Of a DNA stretch of 64,000 nt, positions 18,160-59,241 are shown in pieces. The stretch lies in the NCBI GenBank assembly GCA_009923445.1, contig RFTN01000003.1, positions 65,260 through 129,259 on the forward strand, read 5' to 3'. The translations under genes and the position numbers were made by a program. The notes beneath the pieces were generated by a model. That model searched no databases and was not told where the DNA came from. It saw only the letters and a list, made by a program, of their open reading frames with translations. The DNA is from a bacterium. Lineage in GTDB: Bacteria > Patescibacteriota > Saccharimonadia > Saccharimonadales > SZUA-47. Numbering within the stretch: position 1 is the stretch's first letter; each line of letters opens with the position of its first letter.

Positions 18160-18170
18160 AATTTTTCTCC

Positions 18171-19145: not shown

Positions 19146-19156
19146 AACTTATTTCC

Positions 19157-30607: not shown

Positions 30608-30733
30608 TTGTTTCCTTTTTTGTAATCCTTGAAAGAAATGAGATCCTATACCAACCATCGACCATGAGAGGCTGGTAACTTTATAAATTACCAGACAGCA
30701 CAATAAAGTCAAGATGTCCTATAATCAATCGGT

Positions 30734-31490: not shown

Positions 31491-31494
31491 TTGA

Positions 31495-32089: not shown

Positions 32090-33145
32090 TTATTCAAAAA
32101 TACGATTATGAGTGTTATTAACCTGAATAAAAGTAGTTTTTTTACCAAAATCTTTTATTTTTGTTGCTCCAATATATGTACAAGCACTTCTTAATCCACC
32201 AAGAATATCTTGTACTATTTCTTCAGCGCCCCCTTTATATGGCACTATTACCGCCTTACCTTCTGAAGTTCTGTATTCTGCTACTCCATTATAGTGTTTG
32301 TGCATAGCTTCTTTGGAACTCATTCCATAAAATTTTAAACTAACTTTTTTAGATAGATCATACTGCCATTCTCCTTCGCACTCATTGGTTCCAGCAAACA
32401 TACTACCCAACATAACAAAGTCACTATTACCACCAAAAGCTTTACAAATATCACCCACCACTTTACAGCCACCATCACTACAAACATGGCCTCCAAGGCC
32501 GTGTGCGGCGTCAGCACATTCCATCACAGCACTCAATTGAGGATATCCTACGCCAGTTTTTAAACGAGTGGTACATACACTACCAGAACCTATACCAACC
32601 TTTACAATATCCGCCTGTCCGTGCATAATCAGTTCTTCGGTCATTTCTTGAGTAACAACATTACCAGCCATGATTACAGAGGCTGGAAATAGTTTTCTAA
32701 GTTTATGGGCTATTTTAACAAAATTTTCCGTATAACCATTAGCAACGTCTAAACAAATATTTGGATATGGTTTAAATTCTTGAATTTTAGTAAAAATATC
32801 TACTGTTTTATTAATATCTTTTTCGCTCGTACCAACACTATAAAAAACTAAATCTTTATTTATTTCATTATTGGAAGTATAAAAATCTATGTATTGTTGA
32901 GAGGAATAGTGTTTATGCAAACAAGTTATAAGCCCTTGTTGAGATAAAGTTTTTGCCATAGCAAAAGTACCAACGGTATCCATATTGGCTACCATAATAG
33001 GTATTATATTTAGCTTGCGTGGAGAGTATTTAAACCCAAATTCTCTATGAATACAAACTTCTGATCTGCTATTTAAAAATGATCTTTTAGGTCTTATTAA
33101 GACATCATCAAAATCTAGTTTAATTTCATTAATTATTTTTTGCAT
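32090..33145 (-). CDS. guaC: GMP reductase
   Basis: Near full-length match by eye to E. coli GuaC: DVLIRPKRS, ANMDTVGTF, DVANGY, VKVGIGSGSVCTTR, GYPQLSAV, DGGC, GGLRSACTY. Confidence 0.95.
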   Translation of the reverse strand: MQKIINEIKLDFDDVLIRPKRSFLNSRSEVCIHREFGFKYSPRKLNIIPIMVANMDTVGTFAMAKTLSQQGLITCLHKHYSSQQYIDFYTSNNEINKDLVFYSVGTSEKDINKTVDIFTKIQEFKPYPNICLDVANGYTENFVKIAHKLRKLFPASVIMAGNVVTQEMTEELIMHGQADIVKVGIGSGSVCTTRLKTGVGYPQLSAVMECADAAHGLGGHVCSDGGCKVVGDICKAFGGNSDFVMLGSMFAGTNECEGEWQYDLSKKVSLKFYGMSSKEAMHKHYNGVAEYRTSEGKAVIVPYKGGAEEIVQDILGGLRSACTYIGATKIKDFGKKTTFIQVNNTHNRIFE

Positions 33146-33363: not shown

Positions 33364-33894
33364 TTACATAGAAAAAAAATACCATCTTTTATGAGTATCT
33401 ATATTTTCTGAATTATTAATATGTGTTAGATAATGTTTAATTTCATCCCATGTTGAAAAAATCATTTGATGAGGAATTGTGCCAAATAACCAATCAGGAG
33501 TATGTTCTTTACCTTGTACTGTGTGTATGATTATTGGTTTTTTCTGCCTATTAGCCCAAAATATTTCTTCTAGAGTACCACAAGGATGAGTATTAATATC
33601 TAAATTAACAATTAAAAAATCACTAATATCTACTAGTCTTAGATCAACAGAACGTATGGTTTTCATCATTGATGCAAGCTCGTCATATCTATGATGTTGT
33701 TTGAGTTTAGTTTTAATAAGATGCGTGTCTTTATCCTCTAATCCAATATCTGTTGGTTTACTAATAGGATTAAAAACAATGATGCCCATATCTTCTAAAA
33801 ATGGAGTAATAGCATCTCTCCATGTTGTGCCACGATCAGGAACTCGATCAATGGCGCCAGCTAGATAAACCCTTTGATTTTTTAGTCTGTTCAT
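33364..33894 (-). CDS. nucleoside 2-deoxyribosyltransferase-family protein
   Basis: N-terminal RVYLAGAID and later HPCGTLEEIFWANRQKKPIIIH fit the NDT/Rcl-like Rossmann family pattern. Confidence 0.55.
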   Translation of the reverse strand: MNRLKNQRVYLAGAIDRVPDRGTTWRDAITPFLEDMGIIVFNPISKPTDIGLEDKDTHLIKTKLKQHHRYDELASMMKTIRSVDLRLVDISDFLIVNLDINTHPCGTLEEIFWANRQKKPIIIHTVQGKEHTPDWLFGTIPHQMIFSTWDEIKHYLTHINNSENIDTHKRWYFFSM

Positions 33895-34039: not shown

Positions 34040-35080
34040 TTAACAACCCATACTAGCCGATGAACCATCGCCATTTCTACAATGTTCACAGCAATCAGCC
34101 TCTGATGAATGTAAATAAGGGTTGGAATAATATATACTATATATATCAGATATACACTCATTATGAGATATGGTGTCTATGGAGTTTATAGGAGGAAATA
34201 CTATTGGTTTACATGACCATTGTCTGATACCAGCCTTTGTTTGTGTTAGATCATCAGGATCCCCAGAACATAAACTACCATAAATGTATACATTATGTGG
34301 ATTGCTATTAGTGCATGATTCGTAGCTTTTATTGGGAACACATGTAATATACTTACCTGTATCAGAATCAAAATTAAAACAAGCGGATGTGTTTGGGCAA
34401 GAATCTGATTCGTTATATAGCGGGTAATAGTATGATGGTATAGGACTAGGTAAGAAAGGACTATAACGACTTATTGGTTCTAATGGATTTCCTTCATCGT
34501 CTAAACCAGGACAGTATTTCACAACCACAATAGGTGTTGGATAGCATATATTTTCTATACCGAAAAATGGGCAAGTAGAACCTACACCCAACCATTGTGG
34601 ATCAGCAGATGGTGGCTTGCTCATACATTCACCGTATTCAATTTCATCACAATAGACTTCTCCACCCCATTTATTACAACAAGCTCCCATAGCTGTTGGA
34701 GACGGTGTGGTTGTAGTTGTAGTTGTAGTTGTAGTATTAGGAGTATCAAAACAATAATCTTTAGATTGTAAATGGTTTTTACAAGCTTTCATTTGTTGGT
34801 CATCTTCTATTGGAGTAAAGACAGCTACAATTCCATCAAGTTTATCCCAATCCTCACACCATTGAATATGAACACCTTCATAACAATTATGAGTATCATT
34901 ATTCAAATTATTTATACAACATGTTCCTATGTTGGGTCCGAGATAAGGCGCTGGTGTTGTCGATGTTGTAGTGGTGGTTGTAGTGGTGGTAGTTGTGGTA
35001 GTTGTGGTAGTTGTGGTAGTAGTTGTCGTACTAGTACAAAGTTTTCCAAAATCTGGATCAGTATTTTTTTTAACAACCAT
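34040..35080 (-). CDS. Thr-rich, Cys-rich modular protein (family member 1)
   Basis: 346 aa; two uninterrupted poly-Thr tracts flanking GTCC/GACC cysteine modules; C-terminal Cys-rich region. Confidence 0.7.
   Translation of the reverse strand: MVVKKNTDPDFGKLCTSTTTTTTTTTTTTTTTTTTTTTTSTTPAPYLGPNIGTCCINNLNNDTHNCYEGVHIQWCEDWDKLDGIVAVFTPIEDDQQMKACKNHLQSKDYCFDTPNTTTTTTTTTTPSPTAMGACCNKWGGEVYCDEIEYGECMSKPPSADPQWLGVGSTCPFFGIENICYPTPIVVVKYCPGLDDEGNPLEPISRYSPFLPSPIPSYYYPLYNESDSCPNTSACFNFDSDTGKYITCVPNKSYESCTNSNPHNVYIYGSLCSGDPDDLTQTKAGIRQWSCKPIVFPPINSIDTISHNECISDIYSIYYSNPYLHSSEADCCEHCRNGDGSSASMGC
34953..35035 (-). repeat. poly-threonine coding tract (ACN codon run)
   Basis: Plus strand ggt/tgt/agt triplets uninterrupted; encodes more than 25 consecutive Thr. 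Confidence 0.9.
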
Positions 35081-37931: not shown

Positions 37932-39065
37932 TCAACATCGTGAGGCATCAGGATAAGGAGAACCTCCACTATTGATACATGAACTATAGCTGGTATACGA
38001 ACACAATTCATTTTTTTTGCAATATACAGCAAAATCACAACCGTTGTATGCGTCATATGCTTGTGCGCATGTTATAGGCTCTTTAGTTATTTTATCAAAA
38101 TAAGGAGTTCCACCTAATAATGAGCATAATAGAACGGTAACATCCAAACAACTTGGTAAAAGTATCATTAAATAATCATGACAACAAGCAGTTACAGGGT
38201 TTGGGGCTAATGTGGTTGTTCCAGCAAGAGTGGTTGTTGGTACATTCTCTGGAGTAAAAATAGGCGGGGAGTTTGAATCATTAGGCAATTCCCATTTATA
38301 ATTACCTATAATATTTGGAAATGGTATTGTGCCAGTGAGACCATATATGAATATACCTCCATCCACACATTCTTCTGCTGAGGATGCTGTGACACATATT
38401 GGAGCTATGTCAGGATTAAAAGGATCTTCAGAATCAAAACTACAACACCAGGCTGTTTGTGGGCAAGAACCACACCCTGTTGTACCATTATTTTTAACAA
38501 ACCTATTATTTTCTGGAGTATTTTGTTCATATTTATTATTATTTTGATCAAATTGATATGTATTATTACAATTATTAGGATTAGAACAATAAAATCCTCT
38601 TTTATCCGTACACTCTGCACAATTACCTACAATTTCACCAACACATTGAAGCGATGAATCAACTTCAGTACAAGTTCCGTTAGGTTCGCAGCATTTTACT
38701 TTTGGGCAAACACTAACATCTACACAAGTTGGAACTATAACGCCCCCAGCATTGATACAGTCTTGTGGAGGTATATTATCACTACATGTACTAGACGAAG
38801 GATAACAACATGATATTGGTTGTGGTGTTGTAGTAGTTGTAGATGTTGTGGTTGTGGTAGTTGTGGTTGTGGTTGTGGTTGTGGTTGTGCTAGTTGGACA
38901 TTCATCTGCCCATATATTATAGCTTCTATTAGCATTGTTTTGTGGAGATTCTTGTTCACACCATTCTTGTGTTGATCTATTGATAGTGTCTATTAGTTGT
39001 CTATCTTTATCATATTGACAACATTTTTTAATAGTTATACATGGTTGAGATGTGGTAGTTGGCAT
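37932..39065 (-). CDS. Thr-rich, Cys-rich modular protein (family member 2)
   Basis: 377 aa; poly-Thr tract then dense cysteine modules (ISCCYPSS, KVKCCEPNG, AWCCSFDS, TACCHDY). Confidence 0.7.
   Translation of the reverse strand: MPTTTSQPCITIKKCCQYDKDRQLIDTINRSTQEWCEQESPQNNANRSYNIWADECPTSTTTTTTTTTTTTTTTSTTTTTPQPISCCYPSSSTCSDNIPPQDCINAGGVIVPTCVDVSVCPKVKCCEPNGTCTEVDSSLQCVGEIVGNCAECTDKRGFYCSNPNNCNNTYQFDQNNNKYEQNTPENNRFVKNNGTTGCGSCPQTAWCCSFDSEDPFNPDIAPICVTASSAEECVDGGIFIYGLTGTIPFPNIIGNYKWELPNDSNSPPIFTPENVPTTTLAGTTTLAPNPVTACCHDYLMILLPSCLDVTVLLCSLLGGTPYFDKITKEPITCAQAYDAYNGCDFAVYCKKNELCSYTSYSSCINSGGSPYPDASRC
38821..38895 (-). repeat. poly-threonine coding tract
   Basis: Uninterrupted ggt/tgt/agt triplets on the plus strand; about 24 Thr in a row. 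Confidence 0.9.
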
Positions 39066-39075
39066 AATGGTTTTC

Positions 39076-40686
39076 CTATGCTATATTGATTGGGCCTAAT
39101 GATAAGTTATTACCAAAAATATAAGCTAAATGTGTTGGTACAGACTGTCCATTGATGGTATAGTTAACTTGCGGATCTCCAAGAGCTTCTTCCCAAGATA
39201 TTCTATGTCTTAATACTCCGTCTACTAATTTAGTTTCATTATTTGATATTGATCCTGAGCCATTAAAAGCGTCTATAGTAGCAGCAAAATCATATGATCT
39301 AAACCACGAAGTAAACCCTGCAAAGCTAGTATTTCCTGCAACAAGAGGAGTTATATATTTATATAATTGTACTGTTTCAATTAAATATTTTTTAAAATAA
39401 AAGTTATTATAAGCAGCTTTAAGGGTTGCTGTATTAATTCCATTTTTAATAATAATATTTTCATTACTATCTTTATAGTCATATAAACTATTTATAATAA
39501 TATCATCATTTGATTGTTTAGTATCATTAACCCATTGTTTATATATTTTAGATGCTTCACAAATATTTATATAATAAGATCGACATCTAATCCAATGATT
39601 CATAAAAATAGCCTGTTGGATAATTTCTTTTTGATCACTATTGAAATCTAAGATTGACGCTCCAAACTGAGAGTGTAAAATATTCAAATTAATGTTTCTG
39701 GGCCATCCATCGGGAAATAATGATTGTACTATATCGTCTACAGGATAGCCGTCCTCTGTCCAACCAAACCAAGGATCTTTTAAGGCTTGTTTGATAGACG
39801 GAATACTCCATTGCCATGTATTATTTTGTGGGGTCAAACTAGGTTCTGGAGTCGTAGTGGTTATATTATCTGTACATGCTAGAGAATTCCATCCAGTAAT
39901 ATATGAATTATTATTAGTAATATCAGATAAAGATGCTATATAGTTTTTAATTATATTTTTACCTTCAGAATCATTATTGATAAAGCTATATACTTTATTA
40001 TTATTGATATAGTCATTATGTGTTGTGTTGTTAGGTTCTGTAGTTTGATAAATAAAATTAGATTGTGATAAAAAGCTTTCATAATCAGCAATCATTCTTT
40101 TTTTAGGCTGATCTTTGGGAAAAGAAGAATTTGAAATATATTTCATTACTTCAAAAATATAACCACCAACTTTTTCAAGTTTACAAATATTATTTAATAT
40201 AAACATGCCTTCGGTCATAATAACGCTGGTTGTATCATATGTATTATCTATATTATTTTTTTTAATTCCTAACCCTCTGTGTTGTTTTGTTTCACATTGC
40301 CAACCCAATGGATTACCAAATACTATAAGATTTTCAATAAATAAATTCCCAGGAGCATATAAAGCATTTATTCTTTTACCCCATACAGAAGATATTGTTC
40401 CACCAAATTCTGGTTTAAGTTTTTCAATATATAATAATGTATAATGTGTTTCTCCCACAGGTATAAATAAATTTTCTGCTAAAAAATGTCTGTTATACCA
40501 TTCATTTACAAAAGTATCACTAATTGAAAAGGATGGTAGCGTATACGGTGGCCATGTCCAATAAGTATCTGGTGGTCCTTGGGGTGTTGGAACAGTACAG
40601 CATCCGCCGACGATACCATTATTTTGGTCTGAACCATTACCTCCACCGCCTCCTAAAATAGTTATTTTATTTGATTTAATAGTCAT
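39076..40686 (-). CDS. hypothetical protein (536 aa)
   Basis: Long ORF between family members 2 and 3; N-terminal GGGGGNG..GGCC, no recognised domain. Confidence 0.55.
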   Translation of the reverse strand: MTIKSNKITILGGGGGNGSDQNNGIVGGCCTVPTPQGPPDTYWTWPPYTLPSFSISDTFVNEWYNRHFLAENLFIPVGETHYTLLYIEKLKPEFGGTISSVWGKRINALYAPGNLFIENLIVFGNPLGWQCETKQHRGLGIKKNNIDNTYDTTSVIMTEGMFILNNICKLEKVGGYIFEVMKYISNSSFPKDQPKKRMIADYESFLSQSNFIYQTTEPNNTTHNDYINNNKVYSFINNDSEGKNIIKNYIASLSDITNNNSYITGWNSLACTDNITTTTPEPSLTPQNNTWQWSIPSIKQALKDPWFGWTEDGYPVDDIVQSLFPDGWPRNINLNILHSQFGASILDFNSDQKEIIQQAIFMNHWIRCRSYYINICEASKIYKQWVNDTKQSNDDIIINSLYDYKDSNENIIIKNGINTATLKAAYNNFYFKKYLIETVQLYKYITPLVAGNTSFAGFTSWFRSYDFAATIDAFNGSGSISNNETKLVDGVLRHRISWEEALGDPQVNYTINGQSVPTHLAYIFGNNLSLGPINIA

Positions 40687-40697
40687 ATTATAAATTC

Positions 40698-43682
40698 CTA
40701 ATTAGTGGTTGGTGCTAAAGTGGTTGTTGGGGCTACCGTTGTTGTAGGTCTTATTGTTGTGGTTGGAACTACCGTTGTTGTAGGTGTAATTGTTGTTGGA
40801 GCTACCGTTGTTATAGGAGCTATTGTTGTTGGGGCTACCGTTGTTGTAGTTGGTGGACAATTAATACTATTACACATTACATTAGCATAAAACTGTTCAT
40901 TAGGACCATCACAAATTGGTCTAGGTATATTATCAGCACAATAATAATCATTAGCACCATTACGGAGACAACATGCTCCTGGTGATTGCGTGGTTGTTGT
41001 TGATGTAGTGGTTGTTGATGTTGTTGATGTTGTTGATGTAGTGGTTGTTGTTCTGTTAAAACCTGTCTCTCCGCAATTTGGTATGGCTGGACTTGAAGTT
41101 GTACTGGTAGGAGACAATCTTGTTGGGCATTTAAGAACTAGAGTATCCTCATATGCAAAATCAAGAAAAACTTGTATAGTTATAACTCCTCTGGTTGGAT
41201 GCGTAAACTGCAAGTTAACAGGAACACCCAGTTGATTTTGCCATTCTTCTATTGTGCTTTGTGGCATTGGAGAATTTGACGATTTAATGATTCTAAAGTA
41301 TGAATTATCACTATAATCAATAGTGAAATTTCTCCACACATTATAATTTTGTTCTGGACTTCTAGCAGGATTATCTATAATAAAACTATTATCTCCGACT
41401 AATGAAGATATATTTAATTCATCAAAACAATAATTATCTCTTATGGGTATATTTGACACATTACAATCACAATTATCAGTTTCTGATGTCGGATCTGGAT
41501 ATACACAAACATCTCCAAAAGGAGGAGAATAATATTCTAAAGCAGTTAAGGAATAATCACATCCTGGCAAATTGGTGCGTTTGTAAACTATATTAAACGA
41601 ACCTAGAGATTGGGTGCTGCATTTCTGCCAACAAGCACAATTTATCGGGGTAGATGTTGTTGGAACAACAGTTGTAGATGTTGTTGTGCTAGTGGTTGTT
41701 GTAGTATTAGGTCCACAATTAATATCATCACAAATAGCATTAAGATAAAAAGTAGCATTATAATTATTAATACAAATTAATTGAGGTATATTGTTAGCAC
41801 AATAATAATTATTTTGATTATTTACACAGCATGCTCCAAACGGAGGCGGTGTAGTTGTGGTCGTTGCACAAAAATTAATATCTGCACAAGACTGTTGAGG
41901 ATAAAAAGTTTTCTTAAATGGTCCAGTACCACCGCCTGTACAAAGAGGCTGTCTAATATTATCATAACAAAGAGCGGGAACTCCCTCTCCATCGCCGTTA
42001 CAACACGCTCCAAAACATCTACTACTTGGTAATGCCTCGTTACACTCTTGTTCAGAAATGTATTCGCCACCTGTTTCAATATAAGATGGTAATTGATAAC
42101 AATAGGCCATAACCTCTATTTGATCACCACAATTAATAGACCATCTCTTAGGAACATTAGTTGTTGAGGTTGTGCTTGTAGTCGTGGTGGTTGTGGTCGT
42201 TGTGGTCGTTGTGGTCGTTGTGCTAGTGGTTGTGGTCGTTGTGGGAATAGTTGTTGTAGAAGTCGTACCGCCACCGCACATATTCATACTACACATTTTA
42301 GTAGCAAAAAATACAGAAAATAGACTTGCTGGCAATGGAGCACTACACTGTTGTTTAGTAAGATTATTTACACAATCCATGTATGTCATACTACCATCTA
42401 TTGGATTAACAACAAAATAACAACATGCTCCTGGTACTGATGGTGAAATTGTAGTTGTAGTTGTAGTTGTAGTTGTAGATGTTGCGGGAGGCTGAGTGGT
42501 AGTTGACGTTGCAGCTGGTGTGGTGGTTGTTGTACGACTATCATAAGTAAGACTATTTGTAATAACCTCATTTGTACTTGTTTGATTTGATCCACCGATA
42601 TTATATATTATTCTAACTTTAAAAATAACAGTACCAGAAAAATATTGATTATTATTTAATGGAAATATTGGGAAAGCATATACCGTATTTGGTAAACGTG
42701 CTAAATCTGATGTCATATTACCATATATAGTTTTATAGTATGGTGATTGTTCGGATGTCATCCAAATACCAGAAATATTATAAGAAACATAAACTCTAAT
42801 ATATCCTATATTTGTAGAATATGACGATATTGGTAAACAAGCATTATTATATCTTAATTGTATTGATGCAATGGGTTCTCCTGGGATACTAGGCTTATCA
42901 TCGAACCATCCTGCATTAGCAGTAATAATTGAACACTTATCATCACTGAATGGTGGAATAGTGGTTGTAGGTCCGCTAGTAGTGGTAACTCCGCTGGTTG
43001 TGGTAACTCCGCTGGTGGTGGTAACTCCGCTGGTTGTGGTAACTCCGCTGGTTGTGGTAACTCCGCTGGTGGTGGTAGGTCCGCTAGTAGTTGTAACTCC
43101 GCTGGTTGTGGTTATATTAGCCGTAGTTGTGGGAGCGAGAGTGGTGGAAGAACAAAATTGATAATTATATACCCCTGGAAAATCTATCCATGGACTAATA
43201 GGACCATTAATATTAAATAGATAAAATTCAACACTAATAGATCTAATTCTAAATATTAAACTATTATTATTTAATGGTAATTCTATATATACGGTATATA
43301 TTCCGCCGCCGGTGGTGTCGGCTTTAACAAACCTTCTATCAAAAACAGAAAAATTAATAATATTAATAGCTTCTATTTCAAAAGCTTTAATATTAGTATT
43401 AATGTTTGGATGAGCAAATTTTAGTACTATATATTTTACATTTTGTTGCGGACTAGATAAATTGTCGTAACATCCAATAGAAATAATTTTTGGAGGAGGT
43501 AATTCTGTTGTTGGTGTTTCGGTGGTTGTGACCCCTCTGGTAGTTGTAACTCCGCTGGTTGTGGTAACTCCGCTGGTGGTGGTAACTCCGCTGGTTGTGG
43601 TAACTCCGCTGGTTGTGGTAACTCCGCTGGTTGTGGTAACTCCGCCCAGGATGTAACATCTGTACCATCTCCTAAAGACCAA
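40698..43682 (-). CDS. giant Thr/Cys-rich modular fibre protein, distal part (probably the 3' portion of a single roughly 1,880-codon gene)
   Basis: 994 aa from a weak TTG start. Alternates TSG[VP]TT linkers, beta-sandwich-like modules and four G-A-C-C cysteine modules. Its frame is -1 relative to the upstream ORF. Confidence 0.7.
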   Translation of the reverse strand: MVFRRWYRCYILGGVTTTSGVTTTSGVTTTSGVTTTSGVTTTSGVTTTRGVTTTETPTTELPPPKIISIGCYDNLSSPQQNVKYIVLKFAHPNINTNIKAFEIEAINIINFSVFDRRFVKADTTGGGIYTVYIELPLNNNSLIFRIRSISVEFYLFNINGPISPWIDFPGVYNYQFCSSTTLAPTTTANITTTSGVTTTSGPTTTSGVTTTSGVTTTSGVTTTSGVTTTSGVTTTSGPTTTIPPFSDDKCSIITANAGWFDDKPSIPGEPIASIQLRYNNACLPISSYSTNIGYIRVYVSYNISGIWMTSEQSPYYKTIYGNMTSDLARLPNTVYAFPIFPLNNNQYFSGTVIFKVRIIYNIGGSNQTSTNEVITNSLTYDSRTTTTTPAATSTTTQPPATSTTTTTTTTTISPSVPGACCYFVVNPIDGSMTYMDCVNNLTKQQCSAPLPASLFSVFFATKMCSMNMCGGGTTSTTTIPTTTTTTSTTTTTTTTTTTTTTTSTTSTTNVPKRWSINCGDQIEVMAYCYQLPSYIETGGEYISEQECNEALPSSRCFGACCNGDGEGVPALCYDNIRQPLCTGGGTGPFKKTFYPQQSCADINFCATTTTTPPPFGACCVNNQNNYYCANNIPQLICINNYNATFYLNAICDDINCGPNTTTTTSTTTSTTVVPTTSTPINCACWQKCSTQSLGSFNIVYKRTNLPGCDYSLTALEYYSPPFGDVCVYPDPTSETDNCDCNVSNIPIRDNYCFDELNISSLVGDNSFIIDNPARSPEQNYNVWRNFTIDYSDNSYFRIIKSSNSPMPQSTIEEWQNQLGVPVNLQFTHPTRGVITIQVFLDFAYEDTLVLKCPTRLSPTSTTSSPAIPNCGETGFNRTTTTTSTTSTTSTTTTSTTTTQSPGACCLRNGANDYYCADNIPRPICDGPNEQFYANVMCNSINCPPTTTTVAPTTIAPITTVAPTTITPTTTVVPTTTIRPTTTVAPTTTLAPTTN
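40701..40855 (-). repeat. approx. 24-nt coding repeat (TTVAPTTx C-terminal tail)
   Basis: Encodes TTVAPTTIAPITTVAPTTITPTTTVVPTTTIRPTTTVAPTTTLAPTTN at the protein C-terminus. Confidence 0.8.
42158..42268 (-). repeat. poly-Thr/Ser coding tract
   Basis: gtcgtggtggttgtggtcgttgtggtc... encodes TTTTTSTTTTTTTTTTTTTTTSTTSTT. Confidence 0.9.
42958..43130 (-). repeat. 18-nt tandem repeat array 1 (ggtaactccgctggttgt; TSGVTT linker)
   Basis: About 9 near-identical in-frame units read directly from the sequence. Confidence 0.95.
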
Positions 43683-46336
43683 AACCTAACTCTCCAGTAA
43701 TAACCATTTTGAATATTACTCAACACAAAAACACTTGTACGATTACTTTCTATAGTATATATAGCTTCATCTATCCAAGAAATACCATTATCCATACTTT
43801 TCTGTAGTTGAATGCCTACATTAAAATTATTAATATTATTAATTATTAAATTTTTATTAACTCTATTTATTAAAGGAGGAGTAATATTTCCTATATTATA
43901 AATATAATTAGTGCTCCAAGCACTTGGTATAACACCATTAATATCATATGCTCGTGCTCTCCATAATGACGGAGTATTAACTGCTGTTGTAGTATAATTA
44001 CCACTATTAGCTAGTATATTAATAAAATCTACATCATTCCAAGATAAGCCGTTGTCAAAACTTCGTTGTACTTGACAATTAACTGTAAAATCGTTTATAT
44101 TAAACAAATATGTGTTAGATAGTGCTTGACCAGGAAAATCTGGATTAGCCCTTAGTATTGGCGGAACAATATTAGTAGAAACATTAGGATCAGTATAAGA
44201 TATATATGGAGTAATTATACTATTACTATATATCGGATTATTTTGATTATCATAATACATCATGGTTATTCTGAATCTAGCACCACCAGAATATCCACTT
44301 ATTGATGGAAATACGGCTTGTGTATATACTTTAAAGTTTAAATATGATGTAGTTAATGTAGTATTCAATATCCAATTATTGGTATTAACAATATTGTATT
44401 CAATATAATAATATATTGATCCTATATTTGAACTAGGAATACTTGGTACAGAACAATTATCATAAGACAAATCAATCTGCGCTAGCTGTATCGATGAAAT
44501 ATTATTGGACGCAAGCCATGAAGGAGTCGCTGAAGATATTAAACAACTTCCTATTGCTCTTGTCGTTGTGGTGGTAACATTAGCTGTTGTTGCTCCGCTG
44601 GTGGTGGTAACTCCGCTGGTTGTGGTAACTCCGCTGGTTGTGGTAACTCCGCTGGTTGTGGTAGGTCCGCTGGTTGTGGTAACTCCGCTGGTTGTGGTAG
44701 TTACTCCTGCGGTGGTTGTTGGAGCGGGACTAAATTGCAAAGAGATGTTATCATTAATTAAAGGTGTTTTGTTAATAGCTAAAATTCTATTAACTCTATC
44801 TATACCAGTAATAGTTGTATTTGATGGTATCCCCGATCCAAAAACTATATCTCGAACTTTTACATTGTTTAAATTATTGTTATTATCTTGAGTAATAATA
44901 ATTATATTGATACTTGGACTAATTTGTCCTATGATAGTATTTAAAGATGTAGATAAAAATAATGTTTCTAATTGTTGTGTTTCAGTTGTATTATTACTAA
45001 TTTTAATATAATTATCATTAGAATTATTAATATAAGTAATAACAGTATTTTCTGGTATACCAGAACCAGATATTGTTGAACCCAATTTAATTTTATTAAT
45101 ATCATTAGGTTCAACAAAAATAATATTAGTATTAATGCTATATGTGCCTAAAAAAGAAACCAATGGGCCAGACGTTGTTGTTGGACCAGTACTTGTTCTT
45201 GTTGTTTCACAAGTACAAGAATCACAATAGAATGTGGTTCCAGATGAACAATTTATAACAGGATAAAAAATATTTCCTGTACAATTATATGTAGGACATG
45301 GTGGGACCGTAGTAGTTGTGCTGGTGGTGGGGCCGCTGGTGGTGGTGGGGCCGCTGGTGGTGGGGCCGCTAGTTGTGGTAACGTTACTAGTAGTAGTAGT
45401 AGTAGTAGTAGGTATATTAGTTGTGGTTGTTGTAATAATTATACTAGAATTACAATCAGCATTATTACATGTTTTGAACGGTTTAAAAATTGTGCTAATT
45501 GTTTGTGGTCTTGGAATATTACATTCTGACTCTAACATTTCTTGACAATCAAAATATTGTTGTCCACCATTACTAGTATTCAAGTAGAAACAGCAAGAAC
45601 CCATTACTGACTGACTATTAATAATAGCTGAACCAGCAGTAATATTATTAATTGATGATAATACCGTAAATTCTGCTGAATTAATAACTTTATTTACAAC
45701 ATATTGGCCCACAGCAGTATTACCAGTAATAGGATAAAAATTAATAGTTTGACCAGTTATTAAATTATGATTATTTAATTGACAAGTTATAACAGATGCT
45801 TGTTGGCTATAATTTATCTGATAATCAGTGGGGGCTTTGTAAATAACATATGGAGTAAAATCATTTTTATGTTGAAATAAATAAGTATTAAATTTAATTA
45901 AAGAAGATAAAGAATTAATATTAGACAATGGATTATAGGAAATAAATCCTGAACCAAAAGAATTTATTGCATATATTTTTGTAATTTTATTATCAAAAAT
46001 AGAGTCTTTAAGAACTAAATTTTCACCATAATAAGTAATAATTTCTAAATTTTTTCTAGCAACTATGAACGAAGGAGGTTCTACTTGTTGAAACCCAGAA
46101 GGTATCGATAGACTATACGGAGAAGAATCAAAGCTTTGAATTATTACAGATTGGTATTTTTGCAGAGATGATAGTGAATTAATATTAGATTCTGGAGAAT
46201 ATGATACGAATCCGCTGCCAGCATTATTGCTGCCGTAAACTCTTACTAAGCGACTATTCTCTGACCCGTTAAGATCCTGTATATTTACCTGATCATATAG
46301 CCATTGAACAAAAGATATTGGCCGATTTATTTGCAT
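43436..46336 (-). CDS. giant Thr/Cys-rich modular fibre protein, proximal part
   Basis: 966 aa; duplicated N-terminal modules, one G-S-C-C cysteine module, TSGVTT linkers, and two FN3-like modules (YWRVRF..G.G..VTSW) at the end before the frame change. Confidence 0.7.
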   Translation of the reverse strand: MQINRPISFVQWLYDQVNIQDLNGSENSRLVRVYGSNNAGSGFVSYSPESNINSLSSLQKYQSVIIQSFDSSPYSLSIPSGFQQVEPPSFIVARKNLEIITYYGENLVLKDSIFDNKITKIYAINSFGSGFISYNPLSNINSLSSLIKFNTYLFQHKNDFTPYVIYKAPTDYQINYSQQASVITCQLNNHNLITGQTINFYPITGNTAVGQYVVNKVINSAEFTVLSSINNITAGSAIINSQSVMGSCCFYLNTSNGGQQYFDCQEMLESECNIPRPQTISTIFKPFKTCNNADCNSSIIITTTTTNIPTTTTTTTSNVTTTSGPTTSGPTTTSGPTTSTTTTVPPCPTYNCTGNIFYPVINCSSGTTFYCDSCTCETTRTSTGPTTTSGPLVSFLGTYSINTNIIFVEPNDINKIKLGSTISGSGIPENTVITYINNSNDNYIKISNNTTETQQLETLFLSTSLNTIIGQISPSINIIIITQDNNNNLNNVKVRDIVFGSGIPSNTTITGIDRVNRILAINKTPLINDNISLQFSPAPTTTAGVTTTTSGVTTTSGPTTTSGVTTTSGVTTTSGVTTTSGATTANVTTTTTRAIGSCLISSATPSWLASNNISSIQLAQIDLSYDNCSVPSIPSSNIGSIYYYIEYNIVNTNNWILNTTLTTSYLNFKVYTQAVFPSISGYSGGARFRITMMYYDNQNNPIYSNSIITPYISYTDPNVSTNIVPPILRANPDFPGQALSNTYLFNINDFTVNCQVQRSFDNGLSWNDVDFINILANSGNYTTTAVNTPSLWRARAYDINGVIPSAWSTNYIYNIGNITPPLINRVNKNLIINNINNFNVGIQLQKSMDNGISWIDEAIYTIESNRTSVFVLSNIQNGYYWRVRFWSLGDGTDVTSWAELPQPAELPQPAELPQPAELPPPAELPQPAELQLPEGSQPPKHQQQNYLLQKLFLLDVTTIYLVRNKM
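43520..43646 (-). repeat. 18-nt tandem repeat array 2 (same unit), in the overlap of the two giant ORFs
   Basis: About 7 units. Read as TSGVTT in the 40698..43682 frame and as AELPQP in the 43436..46336 frame. Confidence 0.95.
44563..44722 (-). repeat. 18-nt tandem repeat array 3 (same unit)
   Basis: About 7 units ggtaactccgctggttgt with minor variants. Confidence 0.95.
45305..45440 (-). repeat. degenerate Thr/Ser/Gly/Pro linker repeat array 4
   Basis: tggtggggccgctggtgg units then (agt)n; encodes TTSGPTTSGPTTTSGPTTSTTTT. Confidence 0.85.
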
Positions 46337-46393
46337 GATATACCATGTCGTTATATACTATATAAATACACGATACACTACACCAAAAATATA

Positions 46394-46654
46394 TCATGAG
46401 ATTGTATTAATTTTGTCCCATTTATTTATAGGACATTGTTGATCACCCCAAGCTAATTTATTCATAAAAATTTTACGATCATTAACAAAACAACCACATT
46501 GTAAACATTGGTTATTTTTAGTGTCGAAAAATTCACATGTACGACAAATACCAAACCTGTATAATATTTGTTCTTTTGATGCTTTAGGGTATCCCGAATA
46601 GATATGCCAAAATAAAGATATTAAAAAATTTTTAACTTGATATGGTTTGATCAT
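46394..46654 (-). CDS. small cysteine-rich (zinc-binding-like) protein
   Basis: 86 aa; CRTCEFF...CLQCGC...CPINKW. Confidence 0.45.
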   Translation of the reverse strand: MIKPYQVKNFLISLFWHIYSGYPKASKEQILYRFGICRTCEFFDTKNNQCLQCGCFVNDRKIFMNKLAWGDQQCPINKWDKINTIS

Positions 46655-46916
46655 TTTGTTTAAATTCTTTTAATGACAAAATATTACCATCAATATCTCT
46701 ATAATAGAGATCTAATAGATCAACCATAGTATTAGCGTCTAACCATTGACTATATCCATTTTCAAAATTCAAACATAGTTTTTTTGTTTGGCTTTTATTA
46801 ATTTTAAAATCAGCAGATAAAAAATATTTATTATTATTATATAAAAAAATACTTCCTGGAACTAATTCCTCTAAATATTTCATTATGTAGATTCCCAATC
46901 TTCCCAAGCTTCCCAA
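46632..46916 (-). CDS. hypothetical protein
   Basis: 94 aa ORF overlapping both neighbours. Confidence 0.4.
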   Translation of the reverse strand: MGSLGRLGIYIMKYLEELVPGSIFLYNNNKYFLSADFKINKSQTKKLCLNFENGYSQWLDANTMVDLLDLYYRDIDGNILSLKEFKQNDQTISS

Positions 46917-47068
46917 GCTTCATCAGCTCTTGATTCTTCGATTCTTTTTTTAAGCTGTTTTTTAGCTTTATTCATAAATTTCTGTTCTTCTGAAATATCT
47001 TTCTTCGAACGATTGTGGTTTTGAAGACTTTGCCTTCTGCTGTCTTTTCTATTTTCGGGGTCTTTCAT
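46883..47068 (-). CDS. small highly charged protein
   Basis: 61 aa Lys/Glu-rich ORF directly downstream of a strong promoter. Confidence 0.45.
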   Translation of the reverse strand: MKDPENRKDSRRQSLQNHNRSKKDISEEQKFMNKAKKQLKKRIEESRADEAWEAWEDWEST

Positions 47069-47107
47069 TTTATTCGTTGATTAAGTGATAATTTGTGTAT
47101 ATAGAGT

Positions 47108-47136
47108 ATATTACGTCATCGTTTCTGGCTTGTCAA
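47108..47136 (-). promoter_or_regulatory. sigma70-like promoter TTGACA-17-TAATAT
   Basis: Minus strand gccTTGACAagccagaaacgatgacgTAATAT, about 40 nt upstream of ATG 47068. Confidence 0.6.
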
Positions 47137-47159
47137 GGCTAAATTAAAATTTCTATCAC

Positions 47160-47188
47160 TTGCAAGATTGCTAGCTTCAGAATAATAT
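47160..47188 (+). promoter_or_regulatory. sigma70-like promoter TTGCAA-17-TAATAT for the plus-strand glycosyltransferase operon
   Basis: Plus strand cTTGCAAgattgctagcttcagaaTAATAT, followed by GGGAGG (47200-47205) and ATG 47217; divergent from the minus-strand promoter. Confidence 0.5.
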
Positions 47189-47216
47189 TGTGCAGGTCCG
47201 GGAGGTTAATACATAT

Positions 47217-47981
47217 ATGCAGAACACTATAGGGATTGCTATTGTTTGTACAAATGCATACTTTATTCTTGGTATAAGATTTATCAAAAAGTTCATGTAT
47301 CATTATAAAGGCAGTGCTGATATTATTTTTTATATTTTCACAGACACCGACCCGTCAGAATATCTTGTAAATATTCCATATAAATATATTCATAATGAAC
47401 ACAAAAGCTGGGTTGATGGTACTAATTCTAAATTTGAAAATATAATTAAATTATATCAAGAAAATTGTGATTATTTATTCTATTTTGATGCTGATACAAA
47501 TATTACTAGGCCTTTTGATGAAACATGGTTTATTGGTGATCTTGTTGCTGGCGAGCACTACAACAATAGGAGTTACGCTATTGACATTAAAAACAAACCT
47601 TTCGAAAGAAATCCAAAGTCAAAAGCTTGTGTGCCACTTGGTTCACCAAGAACGCAAACTTATTGTTATGGAGCATTTTTTGGTGGAAAAAAAGATAATG
47701 TTATTAACATGTGTAAAACTTTAAAAGAAAATCAAATCGCTGATAAATTAATTAATTTTGAACCATGCTGGAATGATGAAAGCTATCTAAATAATTATTT
47801 TCATTATCATGATGTGACTATTGTGCCTTCTGATAAATTTGCGTTTGGGGTTAGCGATAAAGGTGGAATAGGAGACACAAGAGATATGAAACTACAAACA
47901 GAAAAATATAAACAAATATTGCTAACACAACCAGACAAACCATTCGAGTTACATAATAAAGAAATTCTATTCATAGACTAG
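47217..47981 (+). CDS. GT6-family glycosyltransferase (ABO / alpha-1,3-GalT-like)
   Basis: CDYLFYFDADTNI, FERNPKSKACVP, YCYGAFFGG and EPCWNDESYLNNYF parallel bovine a3GalT VDFLFCMDVDQVF, YERRKESAAYIP, YYHAAIFGG and EAQWHDESHLNKYF. Start moved to ATG 47217. Confidence 0.75.
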   Translation: MQNTIGIAIVCTNAYFILGIRFIKKFMYHYKGSADIIFYIFTDTDPSEYLVNIPYKYIHNEHKSWVDGTNSKFENIIKLYQENCDYLFYFDADTNITRPFDETWFIGDLVAGEHYNNRSYAIDIKNKPFERNPKSKACVPLGSPRTQTYCYGAFFGGKKDNVINMCKTLKENQIADKLINFEPCWNDESYLNNYFHYHDVTIVPSDKFAFGVSDKGGIGDTRDMKLQTEKYKQILLTQPDKPFELHNKEILFID

Positions 47982-47982
47982 T

Positions 47983-49305
47983 ATGTTTAATACATTTTTT
48001 GAAACTATAGATAGTACTGATCAATTAAGTATTAAATATACTAATCTTTATTATCTAGATAATCAATTTTGGTATTTTACTACTGACCCAAAAGAAAAAC
48101 CTCCATATGTTAATAAGTGGACCAATACCTATGGATGGAGACCCAACATCAAAATATTTGATAGTCAAAGTAATATACAAACTTTTTTAACATACAATTA
48201 TCCAAACATTGAGAGTATTTCACTTGGCCTATTAAGCGATAATCTTTGGTACGGAAATGTCGGACACGCCTTATTTGATGGTCTATACCCAGTATATTTA
48301 GCATCTGTAAAATTTGGATACGACGATTCTCCATTTGTATATCTAACGAATGATTGGACTAATAACAAAGTAACTGCTGATGAAGCAATACGACTATTTT
48401 CTAAAACTAAACAGATACTTAACTATCCTAAAATAGATAGAAATATTATTTTTAATACTTTAATATGTGGTACCGGAAACACTGGTAATAGAGTTATATC
48501 CAAACAATATACATTGTATGGTAAAAAATATGATGCTATCTATAAGTTTAAAAAACGAATAATGCAAACTTGTGGGGCTGAACATGATAGATTAATCAAT
48601 AGTCCTATTCAAGGTATTATAGTCCATAATAAAAGATATAGTGTAGAAGAACAAAAAATTATAGATAATGTTATAGAATATTTTAATACTCAACAAAATA
48701 TTATACAAATAAAATATATTGACTGGGCTAAATTTAATTGCTTTAGCGATCAAATGAAATTTTTACAAAATATAGATCTCTATATTACAGGTCCTGGTAC
48801 TGGTATGATGTATATGCCTTTTCTTAAAAATGGTGCAATTAATATAAATCTAGGATATATAGAGCATACCCAAACCAATACTGCGAGACCTAATATAAAA
48901 ATATTAAATAGTCATCATGATGATCATATATTTCCTGGATGGATGGAACAATCAGTATGCGCTGGAGCCGATTACGTTAGCACACTATACTATGATAGAT
49001 TTAAATATAATAATATAGACTATAAATATTTAATTAGCCTTATTGAAGATAGTATAAATTTAATTCAATCTAAAACTAAAAGAAATACTAATCATAACAT
49101 AGATGCGCTAGTATTTATTGAATATTGCAATAATGTGGATAATGCAGACGAACTTTGCGCATACTTGACCGACATGGGGTTTTTTATAGAGTTATTTGTC
49201 AATGAACACCCATATGCCATACCAAAACATATGGTGGATATAAATCTATTAAGAAAAATAAAAGATAAATTTGGAATGGATCGCAAATATGAAATTAAAA
49301 CCTAG
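47983..49305 (+). CDS. putative glycosyltransferase (GT61/DUF563-like)
   Basis: 440 aa; GHALFDGLYPVY near the N-domain and IIVHNKRYSVEEQ...DQMKFLQNIDLYITGPGTGMMYMPF resemble GT61 layout (H..D, R...N..E, s..eq...., G.G). Assigned by recall only. Confidence 0.4.
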   Translation: MFNTFFETIDSTDQLSIKYTNLYYLDNQFWYFTTDPKEKPPYVNKWTNTYGWRPNIKIFDSQSNIQTFLTYNYPNIESISLGLLSDNLWYGNVGHALFDGLYPVYLASVKFGYDDSPFVYLTNDWTNNKVTADEAIRLFSKTKQILNYPKIDRNIIFNTLICGTGNTGNRVISKQYTLYGKKYDAIYKFKKRIMQTCGAEHDRLINSPIQGIIVHNKRYSVEEQKIIDNVIEYFNTQQNIIQIKYIDWAKFNCFSDQMKFLQNIDLYITGPGTGMMYMPFLKNGAININLGYIEHTQTNTARPNIKILNSHHDDHIFPGWMEQSVCAGADYVSTLYYDRFKYNNIDYKYLISLIEDSINLIQSKTKRNTNHNIDALVFIEYCNNVDNADELCAYLTDMGFFIELFVNEHPYAIPKHMVDINLLRKIKDKFGMDRKYEIKT

Positions 49306-49316
49306 CAAAGATATAC

Positions 49317-50234
49317 TTAGATCACCGGATATAGTATACCATATCCCTCATATTCTTTTTTGCCTGCGTATTTTGGATCAGATAGATGCTTTGACAGCTT
49401 TTTAAAAATATCTATATAGTCATCAGACGTAGCAAGTTTTGTTTTATTATTAATATTATGAGACAGCAAAAGACTAGCACAACCAACAGCGAATGGATTA
49501 CTCATACTAGTTCCGCTCATAATAGCATAACCATTATTTGGTACAGTACTTACTATCTCATGCCCTGGTGCTAAAAAGTCTAGTTCTTCACCAGAACAAG
49601 AAAAAGATGTCCTATTAAAATTTTTATCAATGGCTCCAATACATATTACTTCTGAATATTTAGCTGGATACATAATAGGAGATCTTTCTCCAGCATTACC
49701 AGCAGCACAAAATGTTACTATTCCTTTACTAGCAGCATATTTTATAGCTTTTTCTATACCAATAAATGGAGAAGGAGAACCCAAAGACATAGTAATAAAG
49801 TCCGCTCGGCGATCCGCTGCATAAATCACAGCCTTTGCTATGGCTTCTGGATCACCCTGTCCTTCATCATTAAGAGCCTTGAGAGGCATTATTTTAGTTT
49901 CTGGAGCAACACCCACCATACCTTTATTGTTGTTGCAGGCGGCGATTGTTCCACTGACATGAGTACCATGACCATTGTGGTCGGTTGGGTCTTGACCTAA
50001 CTCTATGAAATTTTTACCTTCTATTATATTATCTTTTAAATCATTATGATTGAGATCACATCCAGTGTCAATTACGGCAACAACAACGCCTCTGCCCGTC
50101 GCATAATTCCATAAATTTTGTATGTCAAATTTAGTAATCTCCCATCCTAAATACTGCCCACTATCACTAGATAAACCGTGCAAATCTTCTCTTTCATAAG
50201 GCAATAAACCCCAACTATTTTTTCTTCTGCGCAT
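49317..50234 (-). CDS. subtilisin-like (S8) serine protease
   Basis: Catalytic triad motifs VAVIDTGCD (Asp), HGTHVSGTIAA (His), GTSMSNPFAVG (Ser). Confidence 0.85.
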   Translation of the reverse strand: MRRRKNSWGLLPYEREDLHGLSSDSGQYLGWEITKFDIQNLWNYATGRGVVVAVIDTGCDLNHNDLKDNIIEGKNFIELGQDPTDHNGHGTHVSGTIAACNNNKGMVGVAPETKIMPLKALNDEGQGDPEAIAKAVIYAADRRADFITMSLGSPSPFIGIEKAIKYAASKGIVTFCAAGNAGERSPIMYPAKYSEVICIGAIDKNFNRTSFSCSGEELDFLAPGHEIVSTVPNNGYAIMSGTSMSNPFAVGCASLLLSHNINNKTKLATSDDYIDIFKKLSKHLSDPKYAGKKEYEGYGILYPVI

Positions 50235-50979
50235 TTTGCGTCTCCTTAATAGTATTTTCTATCCATTCAATATGATAGCTAATTCTGGTGTGTCCACTTT
50301 CATCTCCATATGAAGCGTCACCTTTTTTATCCCTAGCAAATAAACAAGAATTTATTCCTGCTAATTTATTATTAATAAATAAACCACCGCCGCTATCTCC
50401 TCCTGCTATTAAAAATTCTAATTCTGTTTTATCAGATTCCAAAGAAGGAGAACATATTAACATATTTTTTTCAATTTTATCTATTATATTAGAGCCTGCC
50501 CTCCTTTTTCCATCGTCTTTGTGAAACCCTGTATTAAAGTCTCCCGTTAAACCAAAACCAGACATATAGCATATTCGTCCCACTTCATCATTAGTATTAT
50601 ATAATTTTGGATAAATATCTAAATCTAAACTATTATCTAGTATTAATATTGCAATATCATTACAATCAAAATCATTATTCTTGAAATTAGGATGTTGTAT
50701 AACTTTATTTACAGAATATACTTTATTATTATAATCTATAAAACATCCTTTGGATTTATCTACAATATGTGCTGCTGTTAATATATAATTTGGACTGATA
50801 GCTACTGCTGACCCAAAAAATAAATCATCATTTTGATATTGTCCTATTATTTTTAGAACATATTTAAATTTTGATCCAAATTCAATATGTTTAGTATCAT
50901 CAGTAGATGGAGATATAGTACCACTATAACTAGTAGCACTAAATAATATAGAATATATTAATACCAGTATAAAAACCAT
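50215..50979 (-). CDS. trypsin-like (S1) serine protease with signal peptide
   Basis: LTAAHIV (His), NDIAILIL (Asp), GDSGGGLF (Ser); N-terminal MVFILVLIYSILFSATSYSG signal-like segment. Confidence 0.8.
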   Translation of the reverse strand: MVFILVLIYSILFSATSYSGTISPSTDDTKHIEFGSKFKYVLKIIGQYQNDDLFFGSAVAISPNYILTAAHIVDKSKGCFIDYNNKVYSVNKVIQHPNFKNNDFDCNDIAILILDNSLDLDIYPKLYNTNDEVGRICYMSGFGLTGDFNTGFHKDDGKRRAGSNIIDKIEKNMLICSPSLESDKTELEFLIAGGDSGGGLFINNKLAGINSCLFARDKKGDASYGDESGHTRISYHIEWIENTIKETQNAQKKK

Positions 50980-59142: not shown

Positions 59143-59168
59143 ATAATAATCCTTTTTTATTTTTTCAG

Positions 59169-59241
59169 TAGGAGCGGTGGGATTCGAACCCACACTTGAA
59201 GGATTTTAAGTCCTTTGACTCTGCCGTTGGTCTACGCTCCC
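59169..59241 (-). tRNA. tRNA, anticodon UAA (reads UUA/UUG, nominally Leu), class I (short variable arm)
   Basis: Hand-folded 73-nt cloverleaf GGGAGCG-TA-GACC..AGTC-A-AAGGA-CTTAAAA-TCCTT-CAAGT-GTGGG-TTCGAAT-CCCAC-CGCTCCT-A. It has U8, A14, GG in the D loop, TTCGAAT T-loop and A73; no encoded CCA. Confidence 0.85.

Follow-up and report, generated by a model that had tools for sequence, protein, structure and literature searches.

The 64-kb stretch of contig RFTN01000003.1 analysed here (64,000 nucleotides in full, called the window below and numbered from its first letter) carries two adjoining genes on its plus strand: one for a glycosyltransferase of family GT6 and, immediately behind it, a second open reading frame (ORF), ORF2, for a partner enzyme that resembles family GT61. 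Together these are called the cassette. Large proteins with tracts of threonine and serine are encoded beside it on the minus strand. The original prediction had placed both cassette genes as listed in Table 1, and their coordinates and strands were confirmed.

The GT6 product scores 64.3 bits with the Pfam profile PF03414 (Glyco_transf_6; gathering score 25; E = 1.1e-17), over profile positions 75-286 of 313, and it matches phrog_3317 with E = 3e-20. A phmmer search of PDB aligns residues 3-212 with bovine alpha-1,3-galactosyltransferase (alpha-1,3-GalT; 2e-12), BoGT6a of Bacteroides ovatus (1e-11) and human GTA and GTB (about 1e-10). Judged by these scores, homology to GT6 is far beyond chance, and the family assignment made in the original prediction holds. 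The ATG start gives 254 amino acids (aa), while an alternative GTG at 47190 would give 263. Alignment to the catalytic domain of alpha-1,3-GalT begins as early as residue 4, and the C-terminus is short and, by inspection, neither amphipathic nor basic-hydrophobic. The enzyme is thus, by its sequence, a bare, minimal GT-A catalytic domain with no transmembrane segment, stem or C-terminal membrane-binding domain.

The catalytic motifs are intact. FYFDADTNI (residues 88-96) falls on FCMDVDQVF of bovine alpha-1,3-GalT, column for column and with high posteriors in HMMER, and the columns of D91-A92-D93 are those of DVD in alpha-1,3-GalT, of FDVD in the GT6 of cyanophage P-SSM2 and of LDAD in that of S-8S53. 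The homology of DAD with the DVD position, first proposed from an alignment by eye, is therefore borne out by both the HMMER and the multiple alignments. WNDES aligns with WHDES of alpha-1,3-GalT and GTB and puts E188 at the position of the essential glutamate, which we take to be E317 of alpha-1,3-GalT and E303 of GTA and GTB. D91, D93, D187, E188 and S189 are invariant in a nine-sequence alignment comprising clade members, the two cyanophage enzymes and the bovine core. In the donor-sugar pocket, YGAFFGG aligns with MGAFFGG of human GTB; this motif is invariant in the clade, and GTB-type chains slightly outscore GTA-type chains (33.5 versus 31.6 bits). The Gly/Ala pair at positions 266-268 of GTA and GTB has an established role in donor choice. 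Because the Gly-Ala pocket is common to the window enzyme and GTB, the predicted donor sugar is galactose (Gal) rather than N-acetylgalactosamine (GalNAc).

ORF2 matches PF04577 with 17.8 bits, below the gathering score of 27, and it is because of this sub-threshold score that we file it as GT61-like. Within its family, 14 of 26 members match the same profile (E < 0.01; best 1.6e-6), and the family profile finds EOGT in PDB (E = 3.5e-4) over a catalytic region that includes the G-x-G-x-G nucleotide-binding segment. When an AlphaFold2 (AF2) model of ORF2 (pLDDT 95) was compared with PDB using Foldseek, the top 16 matches were all POMGNT2 (3e-12 to 4e-11, TM-score about 0.5), the next match having a value of 1e-3; in the viral structure library BFVD its matches include giant-virus proteins as well as phage proteins that bear the name 'Glycosyltransferase 61'. 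ORF2 is a GT-B enzyme, GT61-like without being a member of GT61, and its closest solved relatives are the GT61 enzymes POMGNT2, by fold, and EOGT, by profile alignment. The earlier description of the neighbour as GT61-like thus stands for fold and family profile, but only as a distant likeness, since the Pfam score falls short of the GT61 cut-off. POMGNT2 extends protein O-mannose and EOGT modifies serine or threonine of proteins. ORF2 differs from both in sequence (11-13% identity) and in its modules: a beta domain is added at the N-terminus and a helical domain at the C-terminus, and it has no FnIII or EGF-recognition module.

The two genes belong together. The ATG of ORF2 lies one base past the TAG stop of the GT6 gene and, because only this base separates them, ORF2 is probably translationally coupled to GT6. 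In 17 of the 19 IMG/VR loci with ORF2, the gene immediately before it on that strand is GT6, whose stop usually overlaps the ORF2 start; the pairing is also seen in long metagenome contigs (L024-L026 and L278), and natural fusions of 688-690 aa join the two in the same domain order. GT6 and ORF2 are therefore a conserved, sometimes fused, two-enzyme unit. A tblastn search with ORF2 found no match in 50,697 phage records, so that there is no cultured relative with ORF2, and a pattern scan of 185,579 species-representative bacterial and archaeal genomes, which detects close relatives only, yielded no ORF2 relative.

For the neighbouring proteins we define a poly-Ser/Thr ORF as one with at least 70% serine plus threonine within a 30-aa stretch. 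Only four such ORFs occur in the window. All lie at 34.0-46.3 kb, abutting the cassette, and their tracts consist of poly-Thr or (TTTSGP/V)n between cysteine-rich modules. In two related loci (L276 and L277) the corresponding place beside GT6 is taken by a homologue of the 966-aa protein whose repeats are (PTTTDG)n. The ORFs of 966 aa and 994 aa overlap by 247 nt (43436-43682) inside an 18-nt repeat, CTGGTTGTGGTAACTCCG, further copies of which lie at 42972-43112 and 44593-44699. The overlap copy reads AELPQP in the 966-aa frame and TTSGVT, as elsewhere, in the 994-aa frame; the two ORFs are probably one gene of about 1900 aa that was split within the repeat, either by a frameshift or through misassembly.

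This proximity is not confined to the window. Cassette loci contain 25 poly-Ser/Thr ORFs in 378 kb, and 80 PhoH-anchored loci of the same phage lineage, which have no cassette, contain none in 1224 kb. After dereplication, a poly-Ser/Thr ORF lies within 10 kb in 22 of 59 loci of the GT6 clade, compared with 0 of 44 PhoH controls and 0 of 8 controls anchored on the S8 protease (Fisher p about 1e-7). Adhesin-type domains (Fib_succ_major, DUF5977) are found in the poly-Ser/Thr proteins of related loci, where a phage tail-tip domain also occurs in one neighbour.

Since the PhoH and S8 controls sit in replication modules, a stricter test was made within a single protein family. Many of the loci share the recurrent gene order C11-C1-C5-C0-GT6 followed by either C2 or ORF2, in which C5 is a fibre-like protein that carries the poly-Ser/Thr tract. 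Anchoring on the N-terminal domain of C5 gave 80 loci with C11-C1-C5 synteny, of which 49 were dereplicated and evaluable. Where C0 follows immediately, 8 of 10 loci have the tract in C5; where it does not, only 1 of 39 does (p = 8.6e-7; odds ratio about 150). When loci are sorted by GT6, the figures are 4 of 4 with the gene and 4 of 37 without (p = 7e-4). Within one orthologous family, then, the mucin-like tract comes and goes with the adjacent sugar-transferase genes.

C0 corresponds to phrog_4417, a family listed as of 'unknown function' that has no Pfam match and, at 90% identity, comprises more than 3600 clusters. The gene occurs at L182:9039-9995, at L024:8333-9292 and in 31 loci of the GT6 clade, between the poly-Ser/Thr fibre-like gene and GT6. 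A sequence-profile search of PDB with the C0 family returned nothing, and only the fold search identified it: the matches of its model (pLDDT 87) in PDB are solely GT-A glycosyltransferases, including UGGT, XXYLT1, LgtC, glycogenin and COLGALT1. An HDCD motif is invariant in the family. Judged from this model, C0 folds as a GT-A glycosyltransferase.

The position of the cassette is itself variable. It is absent from 13 IMG/VR loci that have the synteny rIIA-rIIB-RuvB-Trypsin-S8, and in three of them (L111-113) S8 runs straight into a homologue of the small gene at 46394-46654. The cassette is thus well supported as an accessory insertion relative to its syntenic relatives. Others carry different sugar-modifying cassettes, also on the opposite strand, at the same site beside the S8 and trypsin-like proteases. 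That of L110 (8916-14647) encodes a rhamnosyl-O-methyltransferase, a PLOD-GT-like protein, GT25, a PF11397 GlcNAc transferase (1e-73) and HtrL/YibB, and that of L115 (8922-11889) encodes GT25; FkbM and class-23 methyltransferases and Capsule_synth are further sugar-related families found there. The closest GT6 relatives (71% identity; L276 and L277) occupy the same site and orientation and are paired with a methyltransferase (L276:1587-3066). L278 (7862-10638 and 11616-15962) combines a GT6 of 63% identity with ORF2 and an FkbM methyltransferase and has further sugar-related genes on both sides. Because the cassette is missing from syntenic relatives and other cassettes take its place, the stretch beside the S8 and trypsin-like genes is a hypervariable glycosylation island, of which the cassette represents one allele.

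Several further observations concern the surroundings of the island. L121:9434-16595 is another opposite-strand stretch at this site. The S8/trypsin-like pair, which directly flanks the island, is kept across the lineage, and the N-terminus of the trypsin-like protease resembles a signal peptide. The gene at 46394-46654 (minus strand) encodes an 86-aa protein with paired CxxC motifs (CRTC...CLQCGC...C) that is probably zinc-binding, and its homologues adjoin the island in several relatives (L111-113, L115/116).

Table 1. Features of the cassette and its surroundings (window positions)
Feature	Position	Strand	Basis or remark
GT6-family glycosyltransferase, 254 aa	47217..47981	+	PF03414, phrog_3317 and PDB matches
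Codons of DxD motif D91-A92-D93	47487..47495	+	aligned with alpha-1,3-GalT, P-SSM2 and S-8S53
Codons of donor-sugar pocket Y151-G-A-F-F-G-G157	47667..47687	+	aligned with human GTB
Codons of W185-N-D-E188-S, including the essential Glu	47769..47783	+	aligned with WHDES
ORF2, 440 aa, distant GT61-like GT-B glycosyltransferase	47983..49305	+	PF04577, fold match
966-aa protein with (TTTSGP/TTTSGV)n mucin-like repeats, candidate acceptor	43436..46336	-	three small ORFs from the cassette
994-aa Cys-rich protein, 20.5% Thr, many poly-Thr linkers, candidate acceptor	40698..43682	-
377-aa Cys-rich protein with poly-Thr tract, candidate acceptor	37932..39065	-
346-aa Cys-rich protein with poly-Thr tracts, candidate acceptor	34040..35080	-
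S8 subtilisin-like protease and trypsin-like protease	49317-50234 and 50215-50979	-	adjoining pair
Proposed promoter TTGCAA-17-TAATAT	47160..47188	+	hexamers at 47160-47165 and 47183-47188
GGGAGG Shine-Dalgarno sequence	47200..47205	+	11 nt before the ATG at 47217

The cassette is the only plus-strand unit of the window: all other gene-like ORFs of at least 90 aa are on the minus strand, in agreement with the original prediction, which had it opposite to everything else. We considered whether this orientation is unique to the window phage and rejected the idea, as the cassettes of L276-L278 occupy this site in that orientation too. The cassette is co-directional with its neighbours in most other lineages. 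The cassette had also been credited with a promoter of its own. The sequence is present, but with 8 of 12 consensus positions matched it falls short of the 9 of 12 that the scan required, and promoter-like sites are not enriched in the region (21, versus 26.4 +/- 4.9 in shuffles), so that the match of the proposed promoter is at chance level. A stronger TTGACA-17-TAATAT lies on the minus strand of the same 148-bp divergent intergenic region, at 47136-47108. The ribosome-binding site proposed together with the promoter is credible, since Shine-Dalgarno cores precede 37 of 81 window genes (46%) compared with 8.7% of random 17-mers. No plus-strand terminator was found after ORF2, whose stop lies 11 bp from the convergent stop of S8, and base composition does not set the cassette apart (GC 0.29-0.31, versus 0.29-0.34 in the flanks). 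The label 'moron-like' is apt for an accessory insertion relative to syntenic relatives but is not supported by base composition or by the lytic-type gene content described below.

The GT6 family has been divided into three clades (Thiyagarajan et al. 2012, PMC3516806). Clade 1, with a minimal domain and DxD, comprises the GT6 of cyanophage P-SSM2, marine-metagenome homologues and PaGT6 of Parachlamydia acanthamoebae; PaGT6 was shown to need Mg2+ or Mn2+, and the phage enzymes were grouped with the metal-dependent members (PMC3516806), a view with which Pham et al. (2014, PMC3961637) agree. In BoGT6a, NAN replaces DxD, and the enzyme is metal independent and has a C-terminal membrane-binding domain (PMC3961637, PMC3516806). 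Metal dependence can accordingly be predicted for the window enzyme from its DxD and the precedent of PaGT6.

The original prediction regarded retention of DxD as unusual and phage GT6 genes as rare, and neither view can be maintained. A phage GT6 with DxD has already been published and is the rule, not the exception: DAD is found in all of the 120 nearest clusters at 90% identity and, among the 150 nearest clusters at 50% identity in a library of 1.84 billion proteins, DxD is found in 131 and NAN in 2. GT6 is encoded in 70 cultured phage records, members of the window clade are encoded in 113 IMG/VR stretches, and the clade profile matches 1784 clusters at 50% identity (E <= 1e-3). Many representatives of the clade (P0361-P0508) join GT6 to other domains in proteins of 460-1263 aa, in which it occupies one end or the other or is present twice (for example, P0367 with 992 aa, P0442 with 1263 aa, P0438 with 1191 aa, and P0449 with two GT6 domains), and L008 and L009 encode a 475-aa GT6 with an additional C-terminal domain. 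Four IMG/VR contigs named GVMAG-... (L122, L123, L147 and L171) carry the clade yet are binned as metagenome-assembled genomes of giant viruses; either they are mis-binned phage contigs or the clade is also present in large eukaryotic viruses.

In its architecture the window enzyme shares what defines clade 1: a catalytic domain of about 230-260 aa, an intact DxD, no C-terminal BHB membrane-binding domain and a phage genome as its carrier. It differs from the P-SSM2 enzyme in its donor pocket (AGGFNGG in P-SSM2, the GTB-like motif in the window) and in its company, since cyanophage GT6 genes belong to a polysaccharide cluster with GT11, GT2, GT1 and epimerase, whereas those of the window clade are accompanied by the GT61-like enzyme, C0 or methyltransferases beside poly-Ser/Thr proteins. 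Identity is 27-31% to the GT6 of P-SSM2, 23-29% to that of S-8S53 and 25% to the bovine core, which makes the window enzyme about as distant from P-SSM2 as from bovine alpha-1,3-GalT. It may form a separate deep branch that has kept DxD rather than group with P-SSM2. With the vertebrate enzymes (alpha-1,3-GalT, GTA and GTB) it shares a GT-A core of about 210 residues, DxD, W-x-D-E-S and a GAFFGG identical to that of GTB; unlike them it has no N-terminal transmembrane segment or stem, its C-terminal 40 residues do not align by hidden Markov model, and it is presumably cytoplasmic, whereas they are Golgi-lumenal. BoGT6a belongs to the same family and scores similarly, but the window enzyme has neither its NAN nor its membrane-binding domain.

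Gene content marks the window as part of a large phage of lytic type. It encodes rIIA, rIIB, a RuvB-like ATPase and a RecA/UvsX-like recombinase, together with a DnaB-like helicase, primase, both ribonucleotide reductase subunits, PhoH and DNA ligase. No integrase turned up among about 40 of the larger window ORFs scanned, although no search aimed at integrases was made. A megablast search of window positions 46000-50500 against the 50,697 phage records gave no matches. The window matches a lake-metagenome contig in an NCBI assembly labelled 'bacterium', in which the identical GT6 protein is called 'hypothetical protein'. Its auxiliary genes are unusually rich for one 64-kb stretch: tRNA-Leu(TAA) at 59168-59241, a sigma-70 region-4 protein (29960-30712), an IMPDH/GMP-reductase homologue (32090-33145), a ClpP-like protease (27996-28664), a ferritin-like protein (30921-31550) and a nucleoside 2-deoxyribosyltransferase-like protein (33364-33894). 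GC content is 32% in the window as a whole and rises to 45% at 18000-20000, compared with about 32% elsewhere; this stretch encodes a Gly_rich_2 (PF21722) protein (19157-20014) and a tail-fibre-assembly-like protein (18171-19145). The protein at 20867-22195 matches head-decoration and tail-fibre PHROGs. A structural-looking protein of 536 aa (39076-40686) found no relatives when used as an anchor in IMG/VR.

We prefer the mechanism in which GT6 and ORF2 O-glycosylate the phage's own mucin-like proteins, and consider the chances of its being correct to be evenly balanced. Both enzymes would be soluble and cytoplasmic (neither has a signal peptide, transmembrane segment or membrane-binding tail) and would act in sequence on the poly-Thr/Ser tracts of the large Cys-rich, fibre-like proteins beside them. 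The inverting, GT61-like ORF2 would add or extend a beta-linked sugar on threonine or serine, and the retaining, Mn2+/Mg2+-dependent GT6 would cap the glycan with an alpha-1,3-linked hexose, predicted to be Gal. Exposed phage proteins would thereby acquire a mucin-like coat of O-glycans, which the swapping of cassettes at the island would vary between related phages. In 17 loci of the clade the first or second gene after GT6 encodes a GDP-mannose 4,6-dehydratase (PF16363, E = 1e-111), which suggests that the glycan of those phages includes 6-deoxyhexose units; these loci form the L136-L181 group (for example, L181:3904-4983).

The closest functional analogy is provided by mycobacteriophages, in which phage-encoded enzymes glycosylate capsid and tail-tube proteins (Freeman 2023, as cited in PMC12619734). 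There, too, the transferases are encoded beside structural genes and the glycans are on exposed virion proteins, but the transferase families, hosts and lineage are different and the glycans are attached to the C-termini of capsid and tail-tube proteins. The sites proposed for the window phage are long, mucin-like poly-Thr/Ser tracts in large fibre-like proteins.

A number of points weigh against glycosylation of the phage's own proteins. The acceptor and donor of the GT6 clade are predictions, and the association with poly-Ser/Thr proteins is spatial and compositional; a shared accumulation of cassettes and fibre genes in variable regions could explain it. In 37 of the 59 dereplicated loci no poly-Ser/Thr ORF occurs within 10 kb, and ORF2 is present in only 16 of 78 GT6-anchored loci, which makes it dispensable for the role of GT6. 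The window poly-Thr proteins match no PHROG or Pfam structural family, and their placement on the virion is presumed, tail-tip and adhesin domains being seen only in the related loci. BLASTP with low-complexity filtering found no matches between the four large window proteins and the ORFs of the cassette loci, and the poly-Ser/Thr proteins are therefore not orthologous across lineages. Characterised GT6 enzymes use glycans ending in beta-Gal(NAc), not peptides, and at least one earlier sugar would therefore be needed. Finally, the GDP-mannose 4,6-dehydratase genes fit a phage-protein and a host-glycan target alike.

The main rival, which we regard as possible but on the whole unlikely, is that the two enzymes modify lipid-linked precursors of host lipopolysaccharide (LPS) O-antigen or capsule during infection; the altered surface would, for example, block superinfection or stop progeny adsorbing to debris. 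This would agree with the cyanophages, in which the GT6 cluster of P-SSM2 contains GT2, GT1, GT11, epimerase and GT25 and that of S-8S53 contains epimerase, GT11 and a sugar pyrophosphorylase, and with the literature, which reads cyanophage and bacterial GT6 enzymes as modifiers of the host surface (PMC12801897, PMC3516806). BoGT6a and PaGT6 build a blood-group A-like antigen on H-type acceptors (PMC3516806), and the GDP-mannose dehydratase, Capsule_synth and GT25 genes near clade members are also in keeping with a host glycan. The window cassette, however, contains no priming transferase, flippase, polymerase or nucleotide-sugar gene and no GT11 partner for an H-type acceptor, and its GT6 has no counterpart of the C-terminal membrane-binding domain of LPS-acting bacterial GT6 enzymes (PMC3516806). 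Modification of a host glycan also leaves unexplained why, in one fibre family, poly-Ser/Thr tracts co-vary with the adjacent transferases.

An acceptor of some other kind (a host protein, a small molecule or a cell-wall polymer) is improbable. In that case the poly-Thr proteins would be close to the cassette simply through sharing a recombination-prone accessory region, as might be expected of a hot spot that exchanges unrelated cassettes and of a clade with many loci that have no poly-Ser/Thr ORF nearby. The within-family test, however, controls for module and lineage and still gives its high odds ratio, and the closest relatives at the same site again have an adjoining Thr-repeat protein. 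Hypermodification of phage DNA, in which sugars would be placed on hydroxymethylated pyrimidines to evade restriction, is scarcely credible: the DNA glucosyltransferases of T4 belong to other CAZy families (GT63, GT72), no member of GT6 or GT61 is known to act on DNA, no thymidylate-synthase-like protein or dCMP hydroxymethylase occurs among 30 window ORFs scanned with Pfam, and the presence or absence of the cassette in close syntenic relatives would mean that a DNA chemistry affecting the whole genome had been gained and lost repeatedly. Its support comes from the rIIA/rIIB-encoding lytic type of the window phage and from lytic phages that glycosylate their DNA, in some cases with glycans of several sugars (Pyle 2024, as cited in PMC12619734).

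As far as the searchable literature shows, three aspects have not been described: the conserved pair of GT6 and a GT61-like enzyme with its natural fusions, the exchangeable glycosylation island in the lineage of the window phage, and the statistical link between transferase cassettes and mucin-like poly-Thr/Ser tracts in adjacent fibre-like proteins. If this link is causal, it supplies phage GT6 enzymes with a concrete acceptor that can be tested, after speculation about their role that dates back to the sequencing of P-SSM2. Virion glycosylation would then extend from the mycobacteriophages to abundant freshwater and marine phages, and the very large, unannotated family phrog_4417 would acquire a function.

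More broadly, and tentatively, for we give it somewhat less than an even chance, many aquatic phages may make 'phage mucins', that is, poly-Thr/Ser fibre-like proteins O-glycosylated in the host cytoplasm by swapped enzyme cassettes. These cassettes would draw on C0 (phrog_4417), DxD-type GT6, the GT61-like enzyme and methyltransferases, with GT6 adding a terminal alpha-Gal or blood-group-B-like cap. If this is so, the phage GT6 clade would gain a function after about 20 years without one, and the ancestor that has been proposed for the ABO and alpha-Gal enzymes of vertebrates would be tied to protein O-glycosylation and not to LPS synthesis.

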